Source of the DNA: Candidatus Parcubacteria bacterium
Lineage (GTDB): Bacteria > Patescibacteriota > Minisyncoccia > JAHIHE01 > JAGLIN01
Direction of reading: 5' to 3'
Length of the DNA: 27,635 nt
Assembly (NCBI GenBank): GCA_023142975.1
Contig: JAGLIN010000051.1
Location: forward strand, 1 to 27,635
A program made the position numbers and the translations under genes. Under the pieces are notes generated by a model. That model had not been told where the DNA came from, ran no database searches, and was given only the letters and a program-made list of their open reading frames with translations. Of the stretch, positions 60 through 13,999 are shown piece after piece. Numbering within the stretch: the stretch's first letter is position 1; the number at the start of each line of letters is the position of its first letter.

Positions 60-1811
60 TTACATCCCCAGCACTGTCATAATAACATGGAGCAAACCAT
101 ATGCCAGAAGCGCGATCATTAATCCAATTACGGCTCCGCTTAAAATTCTTTTTGAAGAAGAAATTCTCTCTTCATTTCCAGCGGAAGTCATATACATTAT
201 TCCCGCTATTATAATAAACAACAGCGCGATTGAACCAATCAGCCCTAAAATAAATCCCAAAAGAGTTTCTCCCGCTTCAACAACTGTTTCAACTGTTCCT
301 CTGAGAGGATTGCAAAAATACCAAGCATTCGGATCACAGACGGATGTGCAAAAGAAACTTCCATCTCCGTCAAGATCTAAATAGCTAAGTCCCACGCAAC
401 ACAAAGCGGCATCTCCGGGATCTTCTCCTTCTTCAGCGCAACCTTGACAAATGCCATCATTACATATATCGGTTCCCGCGCAATCAGCGTCTACTATACA
501 TTGAACGCATTGTTGAGCAACGGTATCACACACGGGAGTTCCGCCCGAACAATGTTCATCTTTTAAACAACAAGCGGTTACATTAATTGTATTTGCAACG
601 CAACCTGCTGCATCAACACAAGTTTCTGTACCTTCCGCGCTCGTCGCATCTATTTCCGCGCAAGCGGAAGTTGTGCAAGTAATATTAGAAACACATGCAG
701 CTACGCAAACACCACCGCTACAATCACCAGAACAACAATCACCGTCACCTCCGCAACCTCCACCATCAGCAGTACAAGCAACAAATTCACAACTACAATC
801 ACAAGCATCGTATTTATCTACGCATGGCGGAGTTGGAGGATCTGGAGGAATCGGAAAACATCCTCCTGGGAACCACTGAGGATTGCACATCATATTGCAA
901 CTTCCAGCACAACTCCAAACTTTCCCGCCACCGCAATTATCTCCATCTATATCACTGCAATCTTCAAATCCTCCTCCAACACAGTCTTCAGCTATATAAC
1001 CAGCACCACTATCACAAACCCAATATCCACAATCAGTATCAGTTATACAAGCTGGATCAACGCAAACTGTATCGCAATCTGGTTCAATAGTCTTGCAATC
1101 ATCCTCATTCGTGCATCCCTCGCCACAACCCTTATCACAACAATCATTCGGACAATTCGCAGTTGTTTCAGCTCCAGCGCAAGTGCCATCATTATTACAA
1201 ACTGCTGCTGCCGTCCACTGACAATTATTATCACAAGAACCCGAACCGTCCGGATTAACCCATGTAGGAATTTTTTCGTCGCATTCAGTACTTGCGCCAC
1301 AACCATTTGCTTCACACATTGAGTCTCCTCCTTTCGCTATGTCCGCATAAACTCCAATATCATCTCCCCAAATTCCATTCTCCGTATTAATTCCAGAGCA
1401 AGCAATACATCTGCCAGATGACCAGACTCCATACTCTTTGTCATTCTCATCACAACCTCCAAAAAATCCTCCCTTTCCTTTAACTACAACACATGAATCA
1501 CCATCATTAGCTGTTATTCCGCTACAACTATCTTCTCTACAATGCCTAGTTCCTATATCGCAAGAATTCACAGCACGAGAATACGCTCCCGTTAATGCGG
1601 ATACATCAAGTGGAATTGCCATACACCATTCGGTAGATTCACAAAAAAGCAAACTTTGATCCGTTACAACTATTCCGCAATCGTCATCAAGAGGTCTTTC
1701 AGCGCATCCAAGAAAAGTAGCGGCACTAGTTTTATTAATTCCCACTACTAAAAATATAGGAAAGATTATAATTGCTATAATTCCTACTAAATATAATTTT
1801 TGTATTTTCAT
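60..1811 (-). CDS. Secreted Cys-rich surface protein with C-terminal TrbC/VirB2-like (T4SS-pilin family) two-helix domain
   Basis: N-terminal signal/TM segment and about 66 Cys by my count. The C-terminus GFILGLIGSIALLFIIIAGIMYMTSAGNEERISSSKRILSGAVIGLMIALLAY is the pilin pattern common in Parcubacteria. Confidence 0.8.
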   Translation of the reverse strand: MKIQKLYLVGIIAIIIFPIFLVVGINKTSAATFLGCAERPLDDDCGIVVTDQSLLFCESTEWCMAIPLDVSALTGAYSRAVNSCDIGTRHCREDSCSGITANDGDSCVVVKGKGGFFGGCDENDKEYGVWSSGRCIACSGINTENGIWGDDIGVYADIAKGGDSMCEANGCGASTECDEKIPTWVNPDGSGSCDNNCQWTAAAVCNNDGTCAGAETTANCPNDCCDKGCGEGCTNEDDCKTIEPDCDTVCVDPACITDTDCGYWVCDSGAGYIAEDCVGGGFEDCSDIDGDNCGGGKVWSCAGSCNMMCNPQWFPGGCFPIPPDPPTPPCVDKYDACDCSCEFVACTADGGGCGGDGDCCSGDCSGGVCVAACVSNITCTTSACAEIDATSAEGTETCVDAAGCVANTINVTACCLKDEHCSGGTPVCDTVAQQCVQCIVDADCAGTDICNDGICQGCAEEGEDPGDAALCCVGLSYLDLDGDGSFFCTSVCDPNAWYFCNPLRGTVETVVEAGETLLGFILGLIGSIALLFIIIAGIMYMTSAGNEERISSSKRILSGAVIGLMIALLAYGLLHVIMTVLGM

Positions 1812-2831: not shown

Positions 2832-4889
2832 CTATCCCTGCTTCACCGGCAATAAAATTTTTACCACCGAGCCCCTCATAGATCCCTCGCTGGAAAATTT
2901 AACTTTGCCATTATGCGCGTCAACGATTTTCTTGGCAATAAACAATCCCAGTCCACTGCCAGAAGCGTTTTCAATGGACGCTTTTTTGCCTCTCGTAAAT
3001 TTTTGGAAAATCTTTTTCTGATCGCTTTTGCCTACGCCGATACCAGTGTCTTTTATAATAACCTCCACATACTTCCCAGACTTTTTAATATCTATCTCAG
3101 CGCCGCCTTTTCTTGTGTATTTACACGCGTTGTCAATCGTATTCACGAACACCTGCCTTATATAATTCGGCTCCACTTCAATTTTTGGTATATCCGCGTT
3201 GTCATTAAATTTTAGATAAAGATTTTTTTTGTCAAAATTCGGTCTCATAATATCTACTGTCTCTTTCGTAATTTCTCTTAAAGACATTTTTTTAAACTGA
3301 AATTTCATAAATCCCCCTTCCAACTCAAGAGAATCCAACATATCATTTGTGATATTATTTAATCTCTCGGAACTTATATATATTCTTTTCAACATCTTTT
3401 TCTTTTCTTTTTCGGATAAATTATCAAAGTCTCCATTATGCCACATAGCGATCATTCCCCTGATCGTCGTTAGCGGAGTTCTTAATTGATGAGAGGTGAT
3501 ATGCAAAAATTCATTCTTCATTTCCATAAGCTCTTTTAATCTGATATTTGCCATCTTCAAATTTTCATTCAAAATTGACAACGCTTTTATCTGCTTTTCT
3601 GTCTGCTCATAAAGCTGGGCGTTTTCAATCGTCGCGCCGATATGCGAAGAAAATCCCAGAAGAATATCTTTATCCCTTTGAACAATTTTGCTTTTCGGCT
3701 TTGTCCCGACAAAAACAATTGTTCCTTTTACTCTTCCGCCAGAAAGCATTGGAATAGAAATAAACGATTTAGCGCCAACCACTTTTTGAATTAATCCGCA
3801 TATTCTTTTGTTCACGGTTGGAGCCACAAAATCTTCAAATTTACTGCCTATCTGCATTTCTTTTGTTTTGATGGTTTTGATAACAAGATTGTCGGCTTTA
3901 TCAATATTCTCTGAATATTTCCCAAATGGTTTGTCTAATAATTTTCTTGCCTTTTTTACAATTTCTGATTCTGTGATAGAATGAGTATATACTTGATTAG
4001 TCTTTGGATTATACATAGTCAAAACGCCACCAGCGTATCCAAGATGTCCTAATTTTTTGGGTATGCTATTCACAACCTTTTGTGTGATGCTTTTAATTTT
4101 TAAAGAACTGGCAGCAATTGTTGAGATATCAAGCAAGGATTCCAAATCTTCAGTTTTTTCCTGAAGGTGAACGACTTGCAATTGTGATTTCTCGTAAAGT
4201 TTAGCATTATGAAGAGCGATTGCCATTTGATCGGAAAACGATTTTAATATAATCGCTTCTCTCGTATCTATCAATCGTCGTGAACTTACTATCAGAACAG
4301 AACCAACAGCAACATTTCTTACAACTAACGGAACAATGAGAACAGACTTAATATTAAATATTTTTTGAATTAAAAAGGCTTTTCTTTCAGAAAGAATAGG
4401 AGAAACAAAATCTCTAAGATCATTTCCAAAATAAGCTTTTTTAGTGTTCGCACATTTTACTGTAAAGTTATTTTCTATTTCTAATTTCCCAACATGTTTT
4501 TCAGTAGATTTTCCAAAAATAATTTCCAGTTTTTTAACTAAATCAGAAGAAATACAATAAGGATATTCTATTCCTTTTTCTTTTTCTACAATAAAAAGTG
4601 TACCTATAGGATATCCTAAATCTTTCCTTATTTTATCTACAATCAATTGAGAAGCTACTGTAAAATTTAATTTACTTAATATCTTTTGATTTATGTCTTG
4701 CAATAATTTTATATCCCGTAAACAAATTGATGATTTTTGTTCATTTTTAACTATTTGATTAAAGTCAAAAATTGAAACTTTTCCAAAGAGCGATCTAGAT
4801 AATTTTAAATCAGAATTAACATAAGTTTTGGGCAATCGTTTCTCTTTTTTTGCTTTTTTGTAATATTTTCTAAAATTAAAAAAAATCAT
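2832..4889 (-). CDS. Cytoplasmic sensor histidine kinase with two GAF domains (GAF-GAF-HisKA-HATPase_c)
   Basis: H-box SHQLRTPL, N-box NTIDNACKYT, G1 DTGIG, G2 GSGLGL. Two repeated GAF-like units end in SFSDQMAIALHNAKLY and GFSSHIGATIENAQLY. No TM helices. Exact start codon is uncertain. Confidence 0.9.
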   Translation of the reverse strand: MIFFNFRKYYKKAKKEKRLPKTYVNSDLKLSRSLFGKVSIFDFNQIVKNEQKSSICLRDIKLLQDINQKILSKLNFTVASQLIVDKIRKDLGYPIGTLFIVEKEKGIEYPYCISSDLVKKLEIIFGKSTEKHVGKLEIENNFTVKCANTKKAYFGNDLRDFVSPILSERKAFLIQKIFNIKSVLIVPLVVRNVAVGSVLIVSSRRLIDTREAIILKSFSDQMAIALHNAKLYEKSQLQVVHLQEKTEDLESLLDISTIAASSLKIKSITQKVVNSIPKKLGHLGYAGGVLTMYNPKTNQVYTHSITESEIVKKARKLLDKPFGKYSENIDKADNLVIKTIKTKEMQIGSKFEDFVAPTVNKRICGLIQKVVGAKSFISIPMLSGGRVKGTIVFVGTKPKSKIVQRDKDILLGFSSHIGATIENAQLYEQTEKQIKALSILNENLKMANIRLKELMEMKNEFLHITSHQLRTPLTTIRGMIAMWHNGDFDNLSEKEKKKMLKRIYISSERLNNITNDMLDSLELEGGFMKFQFKKMSLREITKETVDIMRPNFDKKNLYLKFNDNADIPKIEVEPNYIRQVFVNTIDNACKYTRKGGAEIDIKKSGKYVEVIIKDTGIGVGKSDQKKIFQKFTRGKKASIENASGSGLGLFIAKKIVDAHNGKVKFSSEGSMRGSVVKILLPVKQG

Positions 4890-9855: not shown

Positions 9856-11310
9856 TTATAGAATGCCTCGTTTTTTCATTTCCCAGAAACATTTTGCTGT
9901 TGCGTTTACATCGGCAAGAGAATTATGAGCATCTTCAAACTCTGTATCAAATAATTTTATATAAAGTTCTGAAAGTTTAGGCCACTTATAATCATTATAA
10001 CCATTAGAGCTTGGAATTGCGCAAAAATTTGTGGATTTCTTCATAGTGCAAATAGTTTTTTTAGATTCAAGGCTATCTGACATATTTTTTCTTATAAATT
10101 CTGCACCTACAATTTTTTCATCAAAACTTATATTATGAGCAATTATAAAATCTGCTTGTTCTATCAGATTTTGAAATTCAGTTAACACTGCCTGCAAAGA
10201 CACGCCTTCTTTTTCGGCGCGCTCAGTCGTTATGCCATGAACATTTGAGGATTCTATCGGAATTCTAAATCCTTCTGGTTTGATTATAAAATCACTGCTA
10301 CTAATTTTAGTGCTATTTTTATATACCACCCAAGAAATTTGAACAATTCTCGGCCAATTATCTACATCATTCACTGACGCATTCCAATCGCGAGGTAATC
10401 CTGTTGTTTCAGTATCAAAAAATAAATATGTTTCGTTTGATTCGGTTTGTGTTAAAAGATTTTTTGCTAATTCTACCGTAATTTTATCACCCAAAATGGC
10501 TTGTATAATTTCCTCCTTATCTTTCAACTTTTCCATTAAAGGAGTAACATCTTTTAAAAAACCTTTATGTTCTCTTAATTCTTCATCTTGAACTTTAAGT
10601 TTTTTCTCCAAGTCTTCATATCGTGTTTTTTCTGCATAGTCATCTAAACTTACAACTGATTCGGTTTGTATTAAAAGATTTTTCGCTAATTCTGGAGTAA
10701 TTTTATCATCTAAAATAGCTTGTACAAGATCATCCTTACCTTCTAACTTTATCATCAAGGGAGTAATATCTTTAATAAAATTTCTATATTCCTCTAATTC
10801 TTTATTACATTCATCATCTTTAGAGTTGCTTAATAAATTTAATGCTGACTCAAAACCTTTTATTTTACCAACAAGATATCCTAATTCCTCTTCCTTTATA
10901 CCATATTTAGAAATGTTATTTATAAATTCTTTACTTTCAGGAAAAGATTTATTTATATCTTCATAAAAACTCTCGTTTTTAGAAATGTCTGACAGTAACA
11001 TTTCTTCATCACTTGGCAAATTCGTATAATAATCATTTTCAAGATTATTTGTTCTATCCTGTTCTCTTTCTATCGCTTTTTCGGAATCTAATGTTTCGCC
11101 ATATTCATTAACTTCATTCCCATATTCATCATATTCTTCTGCGCCAGCACATGATTCTTCTTTTTCTGTTGCTTCTTTTTCTTCATCTAATCTTGCTAAA
11201 AGCTTGTTAGTTGAATCACATTCTTCCAAAATTCCATTTAGCTTATCATAGCTAAATTTTATTTCACTTTTACATACATCTTCACATAATTTTACAATAT
11301 CATTATCCAT
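9856..11310 (-). CDS. DEDDh (DnaQ-like) 3'-5' exonuclease fused to a long acidic N-terminus with a duplicated 48-aa helical repeat
   Basis: ExoI FFDTETTG, ExoII AHNISFD and ExoIII HNSLADV. The internal repeat has a 219-nt period. Confidence 0.85.
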   Translation of the reverse strand: MDNDIVKLCEDVCKSEIKFSYDKLNGILEECDSTNKLLARLDEEKEATEKEESCAGAEEYDEYGNEVNEYGETLDSEKAIEREQDRTNNLENDYYTNLPSDEEMLLSDISKNESFYEDINKSFPESKEFINNISKYGIKEEELGYLVGKIKGFESALNLLSNSKDDECNKELEEYRNFIKDITPLMIKLEGKDDLVQAILDDKITPELAKNLLIQTESVVSLDDYAEKTRYEDLEKKLKVQDEELREHKGFLKDVTPLMEKLKDKEEIIQAILGDKITVELAKNLLTQTESNETYLFFDTETTGLPRDWNASVNDVDNWPRIVQISWVVYKNSTKISSSDFIIKPEGFRIPIESSNVHGITTERAEKEGVSLQAVLTEFQNLIEQADFIIAHNISFDEKIVGAEFIRKNMSDSLESKKTICTMKKSTNFCAIPSSNGYNDYKWPKLSELYIKLFDTEFEDAHNSLADVNATAKCFWEMKKRGIL

Positions 11311-11346
11311 AATAGTATCTTTAAGTAATTAAGATTGTCTCTTATT

Positions 11347-11895
11347 TCATTCATTAAATATTATAATCGGTTTCTCTCCACATTTTTGATGCCAAATTAA
11401 TAACATCTGCTTTCCCTTTTCTATTTTTATATTTTTAAACTCGTCTTTAATTTTTCGTAATAAATCTTTTTCAACATTGCCGTATATTAACATAATAGCA
11501 TTTTTATAATTCGCTTCATTGAGAAATCTTTCAAGTTTTTTAAAATCTTCTGTTAGTTTGTTAAAGTCATCTTTTATTGTTGTTACTGACTTTACTTCAA
11601 TGACTACCAAATTTTTATTCATCTCACCTGGCACATGCACAATAAAGTCAGGTTTCTTTTTGCCATAAACAATAGCATGACCAGCTTTGTCAACTTCCCC
11701 ATTTAATTTATAGGGGAAACTTTCTCCTAAAATACAACGAAGCTGATGATAAAGTTCGTAACAATATACACGCTCTCTATATATCCATTCTTCAGAACCA
11801 ACTGTACGAAATTCAATATAACTATTATCTACCTTTTCACAAGCTTCCTTTAAACAGTTTAGAAATAAACCAAAATCGCTTTTATTATTTTCCAT
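11347..11895 (-). CDS. PD-(D/E)XK-superfamily nuclease-like protein (182 aa; start re-called at MENNKS)
   Basis: ERVYCYELYHQL helix, KPDFIVH and VVIEVK. ATG 11895 lies 4 nt after the upstream small ORF stop; the longer ORF-track start overlaps that ORF. Confidence 0.65.
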   Translation of the reverse strand: MENNKSDFGLFLNCLKEACEKVDNSYIEFRTVGSEEWIYRERVYCYELYHQLRCILGESFPYKLNGEVDKAGHAIVYGKKKPDFIVHVPGEMNKNLVVIEVKSVTTIKDDFNKLTEDFKKLERFLNEANYKNAIMLIYGNVEKDLLRKIKDEFKNIKIEKGKQMLLIWHQKCGEKPIIIFNE

Positions 11896-11899
11896 ATTT

Positions 11900-12076
11900 T
11901 TAACTTGATTTATATATAATAATTTTTTCAACAACATTAATAATATCTTGCTTTTCTAAAATTCCATTTTTATAATCTAAGAGCCATTTATCTAAATATT
12001 TTTCCCAATTATCACTCACTTCTTCTATCCAATCTTTATCGTTTTGATCTAATTTGTTTGAATTAAAATTTTCCAT
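11900..12076 (-). CDS. Unannotated small acidic, Trp-rich protein (58 aa)
   Basis: MENFNSNKLDQNDKDWIEEVSDNWEKYLDKWLLDYKNGILEKQDIINVVEKIIIYKSS*. It fills the gap between a consensus promoter and the next ATG (4-nt gap). Confidence 0.6.
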   Translation of the reverse strand: MENFNSNKLDQNDKDWIEEVSDNWEKYLDKWLLDYKNGILEKQDIINVVEKIIIYKSS

Positions 12077-12107
12077 GTTTTTTACACTTTTTAATAATTA
12101 CACCTCC

Positions 12108-12118
12108 ATTATACCACA
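12108..12118 (-). promoter_or_regulatory. Extended -10 promoter TGTGGTATAAT
   Basis: Consensus TRTG-n-TATAAT, with a possible -35 TTGATG at 12137..12132 (18-nt spacer). Confidence 0.6.
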
Positions 12119-12138
12119 AGTACCAAAACATCATCAAC

Positions 12139-12280
12139 AAAAAAGGTCCCCCGTCGGTGGCGACCCTTTCAGATCACCCAATGCCCTTTCAGGCAAAGAC
12201 CATAAACACAGTACCGATCAGAAGACCGCTTTTGTGTTTATGGATTTAAACCATACTCCAAACAAAAAGCCCGAAGGTTA
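12139..12280 (-). ncRNA. Putative structured cis-regulatory RNA ending in an intrinsic terminator (family not recognised)
   Basis: An 11-bp perfect stem with an inner hairpin, two hairpins both capped by C-UGAAAG-G, G-U pairs only on the minus strand, and a terminator with U6 overlapping the last hairpin. Confidence 0.5.
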
Positions 12281-12299
12281 GGTTAATAAATTGTTATTC

Positions 12300-12479
12300 T
12301 TATTTACAATCGCAAAACTGACAATTACTATCCGTTTTTGTTTTGCCGAATTTCTTGTCATATCTATCTGATAATTCCCGTTGATCCTTATTTGCTTTTC
12401 TAATCGCGCCTCTCATTATTCTTTCCTGCTCTTTTTCCGGCAACTCAAATAAATTTTTCTTATTATTCTTTATCTTCAT
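12300..12479 (-). CDS. Unannotated small basic protein (59 aa), probable partner/antitoxin of the zeta toxin
   Basis: ATGA overlap with the toxin stop. MKIKNNKKNLFELPEKEQERIMRGAIRKANKDQRELSDRYDKKFGKTKTDSNCQFCDCK*. Confidence 0.65.
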   Translation of the reverse strand: MKIKNNKKNLFELPEKEQERIMRGAIRKANKDQRELSDRYDKKFGKTKTDSNCQFCDCK

Positions 12480-13192
12480 ATTTCATCTTTTAATAAATCA
12501 TATAATCTTTTCTCATTGTAATTATCTTTAAGATATTTGTCAACGCGCGCAACTTTTGGATAAAATTTCTCAATATTATTACTATAATTTTTAATCACTA
12601 AATAAACTTTTACTTCATCTTTAAAAATAGATTTGATTTTTATAACATTTTCTTTAGCATTAAAAAATGACTCAACAAATACTTTTTTTGGTACTTTTCT
12701 ACCTTCTAATTTTTCCCGCTTTTTTGTAAATTCCCACGCAATCAATGGATCTTGATAAATATAATATATTCCAACAGATCTATTTCTGCTAAGTGATCTT
12801 TCAATGTTCCTATAAACAATTTCAAACTTAGCAAAAGTGCCGTCAATCATCGCATTTAATTTGTTTTTCAAAACATAATTATACAATTTATGCACGCCTA
12901 TAGACGCGGCGTTTTGCACTACATCAGAATTAGCGCCATTATATTGCGGTATCATTTCTCTTATTTCGTCAGCATCAATTCTGACTATAGGATTCGCAGA
13001 ACTTTCCGCCATTTTAATTAACGCTTTAGAATATTCCGTCTTTCCCGCCCCTGGCGAACCTGCCATAAATAATGAAACGGGGTTTTCGTTTGGTTGATAA
13101 ATTTTACTGCTAGCAAATTTTTCAAACAATAAATCTTTATTTTCTTTTATAAACTTTTTTGCTTTCTCGCTGTCTTTTGATGATTTATTCAT
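12476..13192 (-). CDS. Zeta toxin-family P-loop kinase
   Basis: Walker A GSPGAGKT, IDADEIRE, IDGT and REKLEGRKVP. Confidence 0.85.
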   Translation of the reverse strand: MNKSSKDSEKAKKFIKENKDLLFEKFASSKIYQPNENPVSLFMAGSPGAGKTEYSKALIKMAESSANPIVRIDADEIREMIPQYNGANSDVVQNAASIGVHKLYNYVLKNKLNAMIDGTFAKFEIVYRNIERSLSRNRSVGIYYIYQDPLIAWEFTKKREKLEGRKVPKKVFVESFFNAKENVIKIKSIFKDEVKVYLVIKNYSNNIEKFYPKVARVDKYLKDNYNEKRLYDLLKDEI

Positions 13193-13278: not shown

Positions 13279-13974
13279 TCAAACCTCCCCACCGAAATAC
13301 CTAAAATGCCCGATTATTTCCCATCTCATCAAAACATCATCTATCTTCGGACCCGCTCCGACATTGTGGACAATCAACGGTCTTTGTTTGTCAGATGACA
13401 ATTTATCTATCACAATCCCAATGTGAGTTTTGCCTTTATTGAAAGTCCAGACAACTAAATCGCCAGATAGATAATCGTTAGGATTTTCTGTGATTTCTAA
13501 AGCTTGTCCGTGGCGTTTGAAGAAAGTCATCAGATTTGGCACTCGGCGATGATCTATGTTTGGATCCGGTTTTTTTAGTCCCCAGATTTTTGGATACAAA
13601 TCAAAATTAGCAGACATATCCTCGTGTATTTCTTTTTGCAAATCTATTCCCAACTCCCGATAAGCTCTGATAATCACATCGGCGCAAACGCCTTGATCTG
13701 CTGGCACATCGCCATTTGGATAATCAATTGATAAATATGCTGGATCGTAAACGACTTCGTGATTTGTTCGTTCTCTTGCGGAAACAACAAATTTTTCCAA
13801 AAACTCTTTTTCTTCTGCGCTTAAATTTTGCAAGCCAGAGGGATTGTAAGTTGAATTCCAAATTATTAAAGCGCCTGTTTTTGTGTAATTGAAAAAATAA
13901 AACACGCCAGAAAAAATCAGCGCTATCAACGCCAATAAAATTATAATTATTTTTTTAGAAATTATTTTTTTCAT
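13279..13974 (-). CDS. DUF1287 (YijF-like) exported protein, papain-like Cys/His fold
   Basis: N-terminal TM, YDPAY, GVCADVIIRAYR, NIDHRRVPNL and THIGIV. Confidence 0.8.
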   Translation of the reverse strand: MKKIISKKIIIILLALIALIFSGVFYFFNYTKTGALIIWNSTYNPSGLQNLSAEEKEFLEKFVVSARERTNHEVVYDPAYLSIDYPNGDVPADQGVCADVIIRAYRELGIDLQKEIHEDMSANFDLYPKIWGLKKPDPNIDHRRVPNLMTFFKRHGQALEITENPNDYLSGDLVVWTFNKGKTHIGIVIDKLSSDKQRPLIVHNVGAGPKIDDVLMRWEIIGHFRYFGGEV

Positions 13975-13999
13975 TTAAAAGTTTATTTGTTTTAAAACC

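Follow-up and report, generated by a model that had tools for sequence, protein, structure and literature searches.

The window analysed here is a 27,635-nucleotide stretch of contig JAGLIN010000051.1 from a Candidatus Parcubacteria genome (assembly GCA_023142975.1). On its minus strand, a zeta-toxin gene unit and a nuclease operon are separated by a cluster of hairpins, which we identify with near certainty as a full-length copy of LOOT RNA (Rfam RF03000). The Rfam match runs from 12284 to 12159 on the minus strand, spans model positions 1-121 of 121 and, at 65.0 bits (E = 2.7e-10 for the window), exceeds the gathering score of 46.4; no other Rfam match lies in the window. The element as a whole extends from 12284, or from ~12299 if its leader motif is counted, to 12137; the interval 12139-12280, flagged in a first-pass annotation made from the sequence alone, is slightly shorter. 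That annotation had called the RNA unrecognised, an assessment that the Rfam scan overturns. It was right in taking the cluster for a genuine structured RNA on the minus strand: the 171-nt region folds with -57.9 kcal/mol, as compared to a mean of -41.1 kcal/mol for shuffled sequences (z = -4.36), and 0 of 200 shuffles are as good.

The six helices of the family, P1 to P6, are all present in the window copy, and all the helices that had been listed on this strand are found among them, namely as P2, P3 enclosing P4, P5 and P6. In 48 aligned relatives, P1, P2, P3 and P5 are 79-98% paired with double-sided changes, and the CCUAA, AUGG and P5 GAAA columns are invariant or nearly so. The host, an uncultivated ultra-small bacterium, also falls within the range in which LOOT occurs. 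The genome contains three full LOOT copies, all above the cut-off; the two paralogues score 66.1 and 65.5 bits, and the copies are ~90-94% identical. In the other two copies P3 reads CUAUUCGCACA/UGUGCGAAUAG, vs. CCAUAAACACA/UGUGUUUAUGG in the window, which amounts to four double compensatory changes. These differences are direct evidence for RNA structure, and together with the full LOOT match they establish a real structured RNA that is already catalogued. The covariation among homologues that had been proposed as a check on the prediction is thus found both in the helices of the 48 relatives and in P3 of the paralogues. Since the paralogue differences in P3 are compensatory, an overlapping plus-strand open reading frame (ORF) and a simple DNA repeat are both disfavoured. 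A 75-residue plus-strand ORF at 12054-12281 was rejected for this reason, as the differences compensate for RNA and not for coding.

LOOT entered Rfam as a "metagenomic-based RNA", its source being the Weinberg/Breaker ZWD alignments (PMC7779021); it is described as having six helices with ~43 base pairs (PMC7657543), and is among the families refined in Rfam 15 (PMC11701678). Rfam files it as a small RNA (sRNA). No function is stated for it in the literature examined, which included the main text of a 2017 paper, where LOOT is not mentioned, but not the supplementary material of that paper; a literature search on 'LOOT motif' returned no paper.

In total, 55 LOOT loci were gathered, some of the genomes being matched in both searches. 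LOOT is present in 24 of 61 related genomes and in 29 of 151 genomes of the class, and was not found in 14 control genomes. It should be noted that the tests on 48 loci exclude L026, L027, L049 and L052, in which P3 could not be parsed, and L054, in which the tail is offset by the match end, as well as L025 and L045, which are discussed below.

Directly 5′ of P1 lies the leader motif GAAUAACAAUUUAUU (12285-12299, minus strand), which contains an AACAAUU-type motif. The leader motif is common to all three copies in the genome and present in most of the 55 loci, with the AACAAUU-type motif located 5-8 nt ahead of P1 in nearly all lineages. In locus L018, a TTGACT-16-TATTAA promoter ends 3 nt ahead of the leader motif, which probably marks the start of the RNA. 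P1 (AACC/GGUU), an internal loop (UAAC / UAU) and P2 (CUUCGGGC-UUUUU-GUUUGGAG) follow at 12249-12284 in the Rfam alignment. P2 is a helix of 8 bp between CUUCGGGC and GUUUGGAG that includes four G-U pairs, and P1 and P2 are 97-98% paired with compensatory changes. What had been read as a weak cUUCGg hairpin is in fact the 5′ arm of P2, and the UAUGG that had been taken for an upstream competitor is the 3′ strand of P1 together with a receptor-like internal loop. In this part of the RNA, C4, U5, A6 and A7 are invariant and C3 and A31-G34 nearly so, while the variable positions of the internal loop co-vary (A/C in 27 sequences, C/U in 17 and C/C in 4).

The 11-nt GAAA receptor, as found in the P4-P6 domain of group I introns and in other large RNAs, has the sequence CCUAAG...UAUGG. 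In LOOT, CCUAA and AUGG are the most conserved nucleotides and stand in the right internal-loop arrangement, and the P5 loop is GAAA in all 48 relatives. In contrast to the textbook receptor, the window has CCUAAC...UAUGG and the LOOT consensus is CCUAAA...CAUGG; the position of the G-U wobble is occupied by A/C or C/U, and the two positions co-vary. By analogy with these RNAs, the P5 loop may form a tertiary contact with P1/P2.

The 5′ arm of P3, CCAUAAACACA (12233-12243), pairs with its 3′ arm, UGUGUUUAUGG (12200-12210), to form an 11-bp helix that is hypervariable across the family. Between the two arms lies segment B (12211-12232), which is composed of an A-run, the P4 hairpin of the Rfam model (CGGUC-UUCU-GAUCG) and a flank, and can either fold locally as P4 or pair over a long range with the tail strand described below. 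P5 (UGCCU-GAAA-GGGCA; 12182-12195) is 98% paired, with many compensatory changes. P6 (GGUGAUCU-GAAA-GGGUCGCC; 12159-12178), the last helix of the Rfam model, has a GNRA or UUCG loop in relatives. The two UGAAAG sequences, previously likened to T-loops, are GAAA tetraloops of the GNRA type closed by a U-G pair. Beyond the Rfam model, P6 is followed by a G-rich strand and U6 (12158-12139), which we divide into the tail strand X, ACCGACGGGGGACC (12145-12158), complementary to B, and a terminator-like U-run, UUUUUUGU (12137-12144), for which the A-run on the 5′ side of B (ACAAAAG) is a possible partner. All of these segments are on the minus strand.

A stretch of 12-17 nt separates the Rfam model from the U-run, and in nearly all loci its sequence is complementary to the P4 region enclosed by P3. 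In the window, X (12158-12145) pairs with 12232-12211: GGUCUUCUG-A-UCGGU with ACCGA-CGGGGGACC, and ACAAAAG with UUUUUGU; the duplex of B with X has an energy of -20.6 kcal/mol. The pairing includes G-U pairs that are possible on the minus strand only, in agreement with the strand-specificity that had been assigned to the element earlier. Over the 48 loci, the duplex of each B with its own X has a mean energy of -21.5 kcal/mol and a mean z of -3.8 with respect to unrelated X strands, and in 46 of these loci the own X pairs better than at least 95% of the unrelated ones. The two real exceptions to tail pairing lie outside this set, namely: L025, a sub-threshold, degenerate locus, and L045, in which the duplex of B with its own X has -8.4 and -9.7 kcal/mol, respectively.

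The alignment leads to the same partner. The 14 pairs of the B-X helix are 89% paired in alignment A2, with double-sided changes at 14 of 14, and its seven core pairs, which occur as up to six pair types, are formed without exception in the 48 sequences. The helix between the A-run and the U-run is 88% paired. The whole structure, including five helices of the Rfam model, is 85.6% paired, vs. 38-48% in controls in which the columns were slid. When given the alignment only, RNAalifold predicts the B-X helix rather than P3/P4, and the A-run/U-run helix too; its choice is partly due to the fact that MAFFT aligns the hypervariable P3 poorly. Furthermore, divergent paralogues within one genome (in G006, G029 and G027) each match their own tail, which speaks for intramolecular pairing. 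It is thus the P4 region inside P3, and not an arm of P6, with which the tail forms its conserved, co-varying pairs. Neither this pairing nor the leader position of LOOT described below is part of the Rfam model or of the LOOT literature examined, with the same exclusion of the 2017 supplementary material.

The B-X duplex (14-21 bp) and the 11-bp P3 are expected to be mutually exclusive, because B lies between the arms of P3. By this steric argument, two conserved pairings would compete for strand B, namely the B-X helix at the U-run and P3/P4. In the window, the Rfam fold has an energy of -49.8 kcal/mol and the long-range fold -52.5 kcal/mol; the median difference is -3.0 kcal/mol over 50 loci, in 42 of which the two folds are within 5 kcal/mol of each other. 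P4 in the register of the window is only 60% paired on the MAFFT alignment, as other lineages use another register, and for this reason it was assessed by self-folding: segment B folds on itself better than its shuffles, with a mean z of -2.5 over 51 loci. B thus tends to form a hairpin by itself, and P3 shows strong covariation, so that both folds are under selection. The base of the B-X helix at the U-run is GC-rich. As modelled, the layout is reminiscent of an intrinsic terminator, with the 5′ arm ~70 nt upstream and with P5 and P6 in the "loop".

The upstream unit in the window (12300-13192, minus strand) consists of a zeta-toxin family gene (13192-12476; Pfam Zeta_toxin, 4.6e-39) and an overlapping 59-residue ORF (12479-12300) for which no family match was found. 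The LOOT copy starts 15 nt past the stop codon of this ORF, and the same two-gene module is conserved upstream of LOOT in G008 (locus L018) and in G013. A weak promoter-like site, TTGTCA-17-AAGAAT (12296-12324, minus strand; 9 of 12 matches, on consensus only), lies inside the end of the 59-residue ORF and is a possible promoter of the window copy itself; TTGCCG-16-TAATAT stands at the equivalent place in L023, the orthologous locus of G013. The two other copies in the genome, on contigs C14 and C16, are preceded by a strong TTGACT-16-TGaTATTAT module, which the window copy does not have.

On the other side of LOOT, a near-consensus sigma-70-type promoter, TTGATG-18-TATAAT, with an extended -10 element (TGgTATAAT; 10 of 12 matches plus TG) is found at 12108-12137 on the minus strand. 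The downstream unit (9856-12076, minus strand) encodes a 58-residue ORF, a 196-residue ORF and a 484-residue RNase_T-type exonuclease (PF00929, 2.7e-16), and is followed by an S49 peptidase gene. The 58- and 196-residue ORFs (11900-12076 and 11347-11937, both on the minus strand) have no Pfam match; at its longest start the second overlaps the first by 38 nt, and it probably starts at a later codon because of this overlap. The window copy of LOOT sits between two transcription units, and it most plausibly stops or gates transcription that enters from the upstream side, instead of serving as the only leader of the nuclease operon. The first-pass annotation had proposed that it controls read-through from the zeta pair into that operon. 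The link to the toxin is incidental, given that the two other copies follow other genes and that the nuclease operon has a promoter of its own.

Across the collection, gene orientation was counted with a greedy gene call over the 55 loci. The first gene downstream has the direction of LOOT in 51 of 53 loci, whereas the upstream genes are split 30/21. The next start codon follows the U-run at a median of 41 nt (55 loci), and a promoter with at least 10 of 12 matches occurs between the two in 3 of the 55 loci; weaker matches in this interval are meaningless, as the sequence is AT-rich. The downstream genes are diverse, and encode KilA-N proteins, trypsin-like and subtilisin-like proteases, a secreted SNase, a methylase-Mrr fusion, Shedu, GmrSD and zinc-ribbon/DUF4352 proteins. 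They do not form the single gene family or pathway expected of the targets of an attenuator or riboswitch.

Other lineages include 8-9 loci in which the P3 5′ arm is repeated directly ahead of the downstream start codon; this copy, which we refer to as the start-codon decoy, is clear in L015, L031, L036, L039, L040, L046, L053 and L054. The 3′ arm of P3 could mask a start codon that bears such a decoy. Because the decoy makes sense only if LOOT and the gene are on one transcript, it argues for a shared transcript in these loci. In the window, the duplex of the P3 3′ arm with the sequence before the next start has an energy of -4.2 kcal/mol (z = +1.2). Elsewhere in the genome, the P3 arms have no second exact site, and near matches are at chance level. 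A separate observation concerns the 20 nt before the downstream start codons of L001-L032, which are A/T-only in nearly all cases (e.g. ATTAAAAAT-ATG) and contain no Shine-Dalgarno-like purine run. Judging from these sequences, translation in these genomes may start without a Shine-Dalgarno-like site, which would affect the masking of start codons.

The assembly comprises 955 kb in 155 contigs and is ~95% complete. The best relatives of its ribosomal protein S7 are in metagenome-assembled genomes of Patescibacteria, and the sequencing runs listed for this DNA are cold-seep and sediment metagenomes. Elsewhere in the window, a 583-residue protein (60-1811, minus strand) has a C-terminal T4SS_pilin domain (PF18895) just below the Pfam cut-off; this domain is common in genomes of the candidate phyla radiation (CPR).

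The LOOT-related pieces in the 955 kb are three full copies, one fragment and one promoter-only piece. The fragment, on contig C16 of this genome (G000; 3369-3429, corresponding to 2544-2600 of the oriented locus L001), extends from the P5 loop through P6 and X to the U-run. On one side it borders directly on the stop codon of a KilA-N gene, and on the other side a protease-like gene follows; the full copy 1 kb upstream shares 96% identity with it. The arrangement suggests that the KilA-N gene was inserted into or next to LOOT and that the 3′ end of LOOT was duplicated in the process, in the way that a displaced 3′ fragment is left behind by elements integrating into tRNA genes. The promoter-only piece, on contig C77 (3562-3628), is the ~65-bp promoter module of the C14 and C16 copies (a TTGACT-type -35, TGaTATTAT, then GATAGAAAATGAATAACAATTTAG) without LOOT behind it; the similarity ends 3 nt into P1. 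In locus L023 of G013, the same 59-residue ORF end as in the window abuts LOOT, and the sequence after the U-run is that of the C14 copy (L002), with its protease-like gene. A comparison of L023 with the window (12137-12560) and with L002 shows that the flanks have been reshuffled exactly at LOOT. In some genomes, two LOOT copies with the same orientation share a contig at a distance of 1-7 kb and so form LOOT-gene-LOOT-gene arrays, for example in L036 (G070 contig C11:12604-12722 and 13873-13996) and in G141 (contig C3:82421-82535 and 89503-89626).

We propose that LOOT is a cis-acting, promoter-proximal, two-state leader or terminator module, a reading to which we assign a probability of about one half. 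In the first state, the long-range GC-based helix of 14-21 bp and the U-run would end the transcript or lock its 3′ end. In the second state, P3 and P4 would hold strand B, and the polymerase or the ribosomes would proceed into the co-directional cargo gene. For the window copy, the main effect would be to stop or gate transcription that comes in from upstream. LOOT resembles transcription-attenuating riboswitches and leaders in having two near-isoenergetic, exclusive folds that share one strand, in the GC-based helix that abuts a U-run, and in its promoter-proximal position ahead of a co-directional gene. It differs from them in that the 5′ strand of the terminator-like helix is ~70 nt upstream inside another helix and that the loop holds P5 and P6.

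Several observations weigh against this proposal. The downstream genes share no function, unlike those of a classical riboswitch, and to our knowledge no ligand, ligand pocket or protein partner is known for LOOT. In the window, the near-consensus promoter starts at the end of the U-run, ahead of the 58-residue ORF and the nuclease operon, and the decoy, searched for before the next ATG, is absent from the window and from its whole family (z ~0 to +1.9). Given a downstream operon with its own promoter and no decoy, the output of a switch is hard to define here, and the U6 after a stable helix could be no more than the constitutive terminator of a stand-alone small RNA. The sequencing runs listed for this DNA were DNA runs, with no RNA run among them. 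In addition, the MAFFT alignment is imperfect in P3 and P6 (P6 is 61% paired), the loci are related and the counts therefore overstate their independence, and the nearest-neighbour energies are calculated without tertiary contacts.

The main rival is a stand-alone, trans-acting sRNA with its own promoter and with the tail helix and U6 as a constitutive terminator, the neighbouring genes being transcribed separately. The strong promoter module of the C14 and C16 copies, the U6-U7 run in this lineage, the promoter that follows the U-run in the window and the lack of a decoy in this lineage would all suit it, as would a compact tetraloop-receptor fold in a stable RNA. An sRNA that acts independently of its neighbours does not account for the orientation bias of the downstream but not the upstream genes, however, nor for the short gaps to the next gene, where a recognisable promoter is so rare, and the decoys of other lineages imply a shared transcript. 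It would also have to act on targets for which the genome offers no second P3-arm site beyond chance, through variable P3 arms that are buried in a helix. On balance we regard it as unlikely. An RNA antitoxin or regulator specific to the adjacent zeta-toxin gene was also considered, and was rejected as having hardly any chance of being right: LOOT follows the toxin unit at 15 nt here, and a zeta homologue is upstream of it in G008 and G013 as well, but a toxin gene is lacking in the vicinity of most LOOT loci, the two other copies in the genome follow unrelated genes, and there are no tandem repeats of the kind found in known RNA antitoxins.

Two further explanations concern the switch that had been suggested at first and the DNA itself. 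In the first-pass annotation, P6 competes with a terminator in which the 3′ arm of P6 pairs with the G-rich strand, and this switch would gate read-through from the zeta pair into the nuclease genes. Its general outline holds, in that the element ends in a U-run and that the strand before the U-run has mutually exclusive pairings. The overlap is also real in the window: the P6 3′ arm (GGUCGCC) can pair with GGGGGACC-U6, the minimum-free-energy fold of the window copy uses this terminator-like hairpin, and the alternative differs from the Rfam fold by 1.5 kcal/mol (-48.3 vs. -49.8 kcal/mol). What fails is its conservation in the family. The pairs in question are 61.5% paired in the 48 relatives, vs. 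59.6% when slid by one column; the P6 arm is not matched to its own tail (mean z = -0.28; specific in 3 of 48 loci), and in most loci the local fold keeps P6. The local fold flips to the terminator-like hairpin because the U-G closing pair weakens P6, which has -9.9 kcal/mol in the window and C14 copies vs. -12.5 kcal/mol in C16; the flip thus rests on one C-to-U change relative to C16. Moreover, the stem requires the AAA of the GAAA loop to be paired with the U-run, and the two other copies are not behind toxin genes. This form of attenuation is therefore very improbable. Nearly as improbable is a DNA-level element, i.e. a dispersed repeat or a recombination or integration site that exchanges gene cassettes and in which the RNA fold is secondary. 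It would draw on the three copies, the 3′ fragment after the KilA-N gene and the promoter module without LOOT, on the G013 junction of the window's upstream unit with the C14 downstream gene, on partial or tandem copies in L032 and L036, and on diverse cargo that often consists of defence genes. Compensatory changes keep the RNA helices, however, with G-U pairs on one strand only; the copy number is low, fragments occur in only 2 of the 55 loci, and the strong orientation bias fits an expressed RNA. No terminal inverted repeats or target duplications were noticed, although no dedicated search was made. An origin from a repetitive extragenic palindrome (REP), which had been offered as an alternative, was rejected on similar grounds. 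Like REPs and bacterial interspersed mosaic elements (BIMEs), LOOT is a short, GC-richer, hairpin-forming intergenic sequence that is present more than once. These repeats are many, dispersed, simple palindromes without strand specificity, whereas three copies and one fragment of LOOT are found in the genome, and LOOT is a ~150-nt multi-helix RNA that is strand-specific through its G-U pairs, keeps its helices by compensatory changes and is oriented with the downstream gene.

A wider version of the proposal that LOOT is a cis-acting two-state module can be put forward tentatively. LOOT might be a portable CPR expression module that combines a promoter, a tetraloop-receptor fold and a conditional terminator, that travels with or captures mobile cargo (nucleases, proteases and defence genes), and that acts as a signal-responsive switch between two folds. 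The tail helix would then be the off state, coupled in some lineages to the masking of start codons.

As for the window itself, the feature is real but catalogued, and the hairpin-versus-terminator switch first suggested for it is not the conserved one. With respect to LOOT, the window copy agrees with the family in the full model, the six helices, the CCUAA/AUGG and GAAA nucleotides and the small Patescibacteria host, and nothing differs within the model. What is added lies beyond it: a co-varying 3′ strand that pairs to P4, in the window copy and in 46 of 48 relatives, and a leader position ahead of a co-directional gene. LOOT has been an orphan structured RNA, one of many, in bacteria not yet grown alone. 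The conserved 3′ strand, the near-equal folds and the co-directional accessory gene turn an "unknown sRNA" into a testable hypothesis of a two-state terminator or leader. If the portable module were true, LOOT would be the first regulatory RNA class specific to ultra-small bacteria, and its filing as an sRNA would be overturned.

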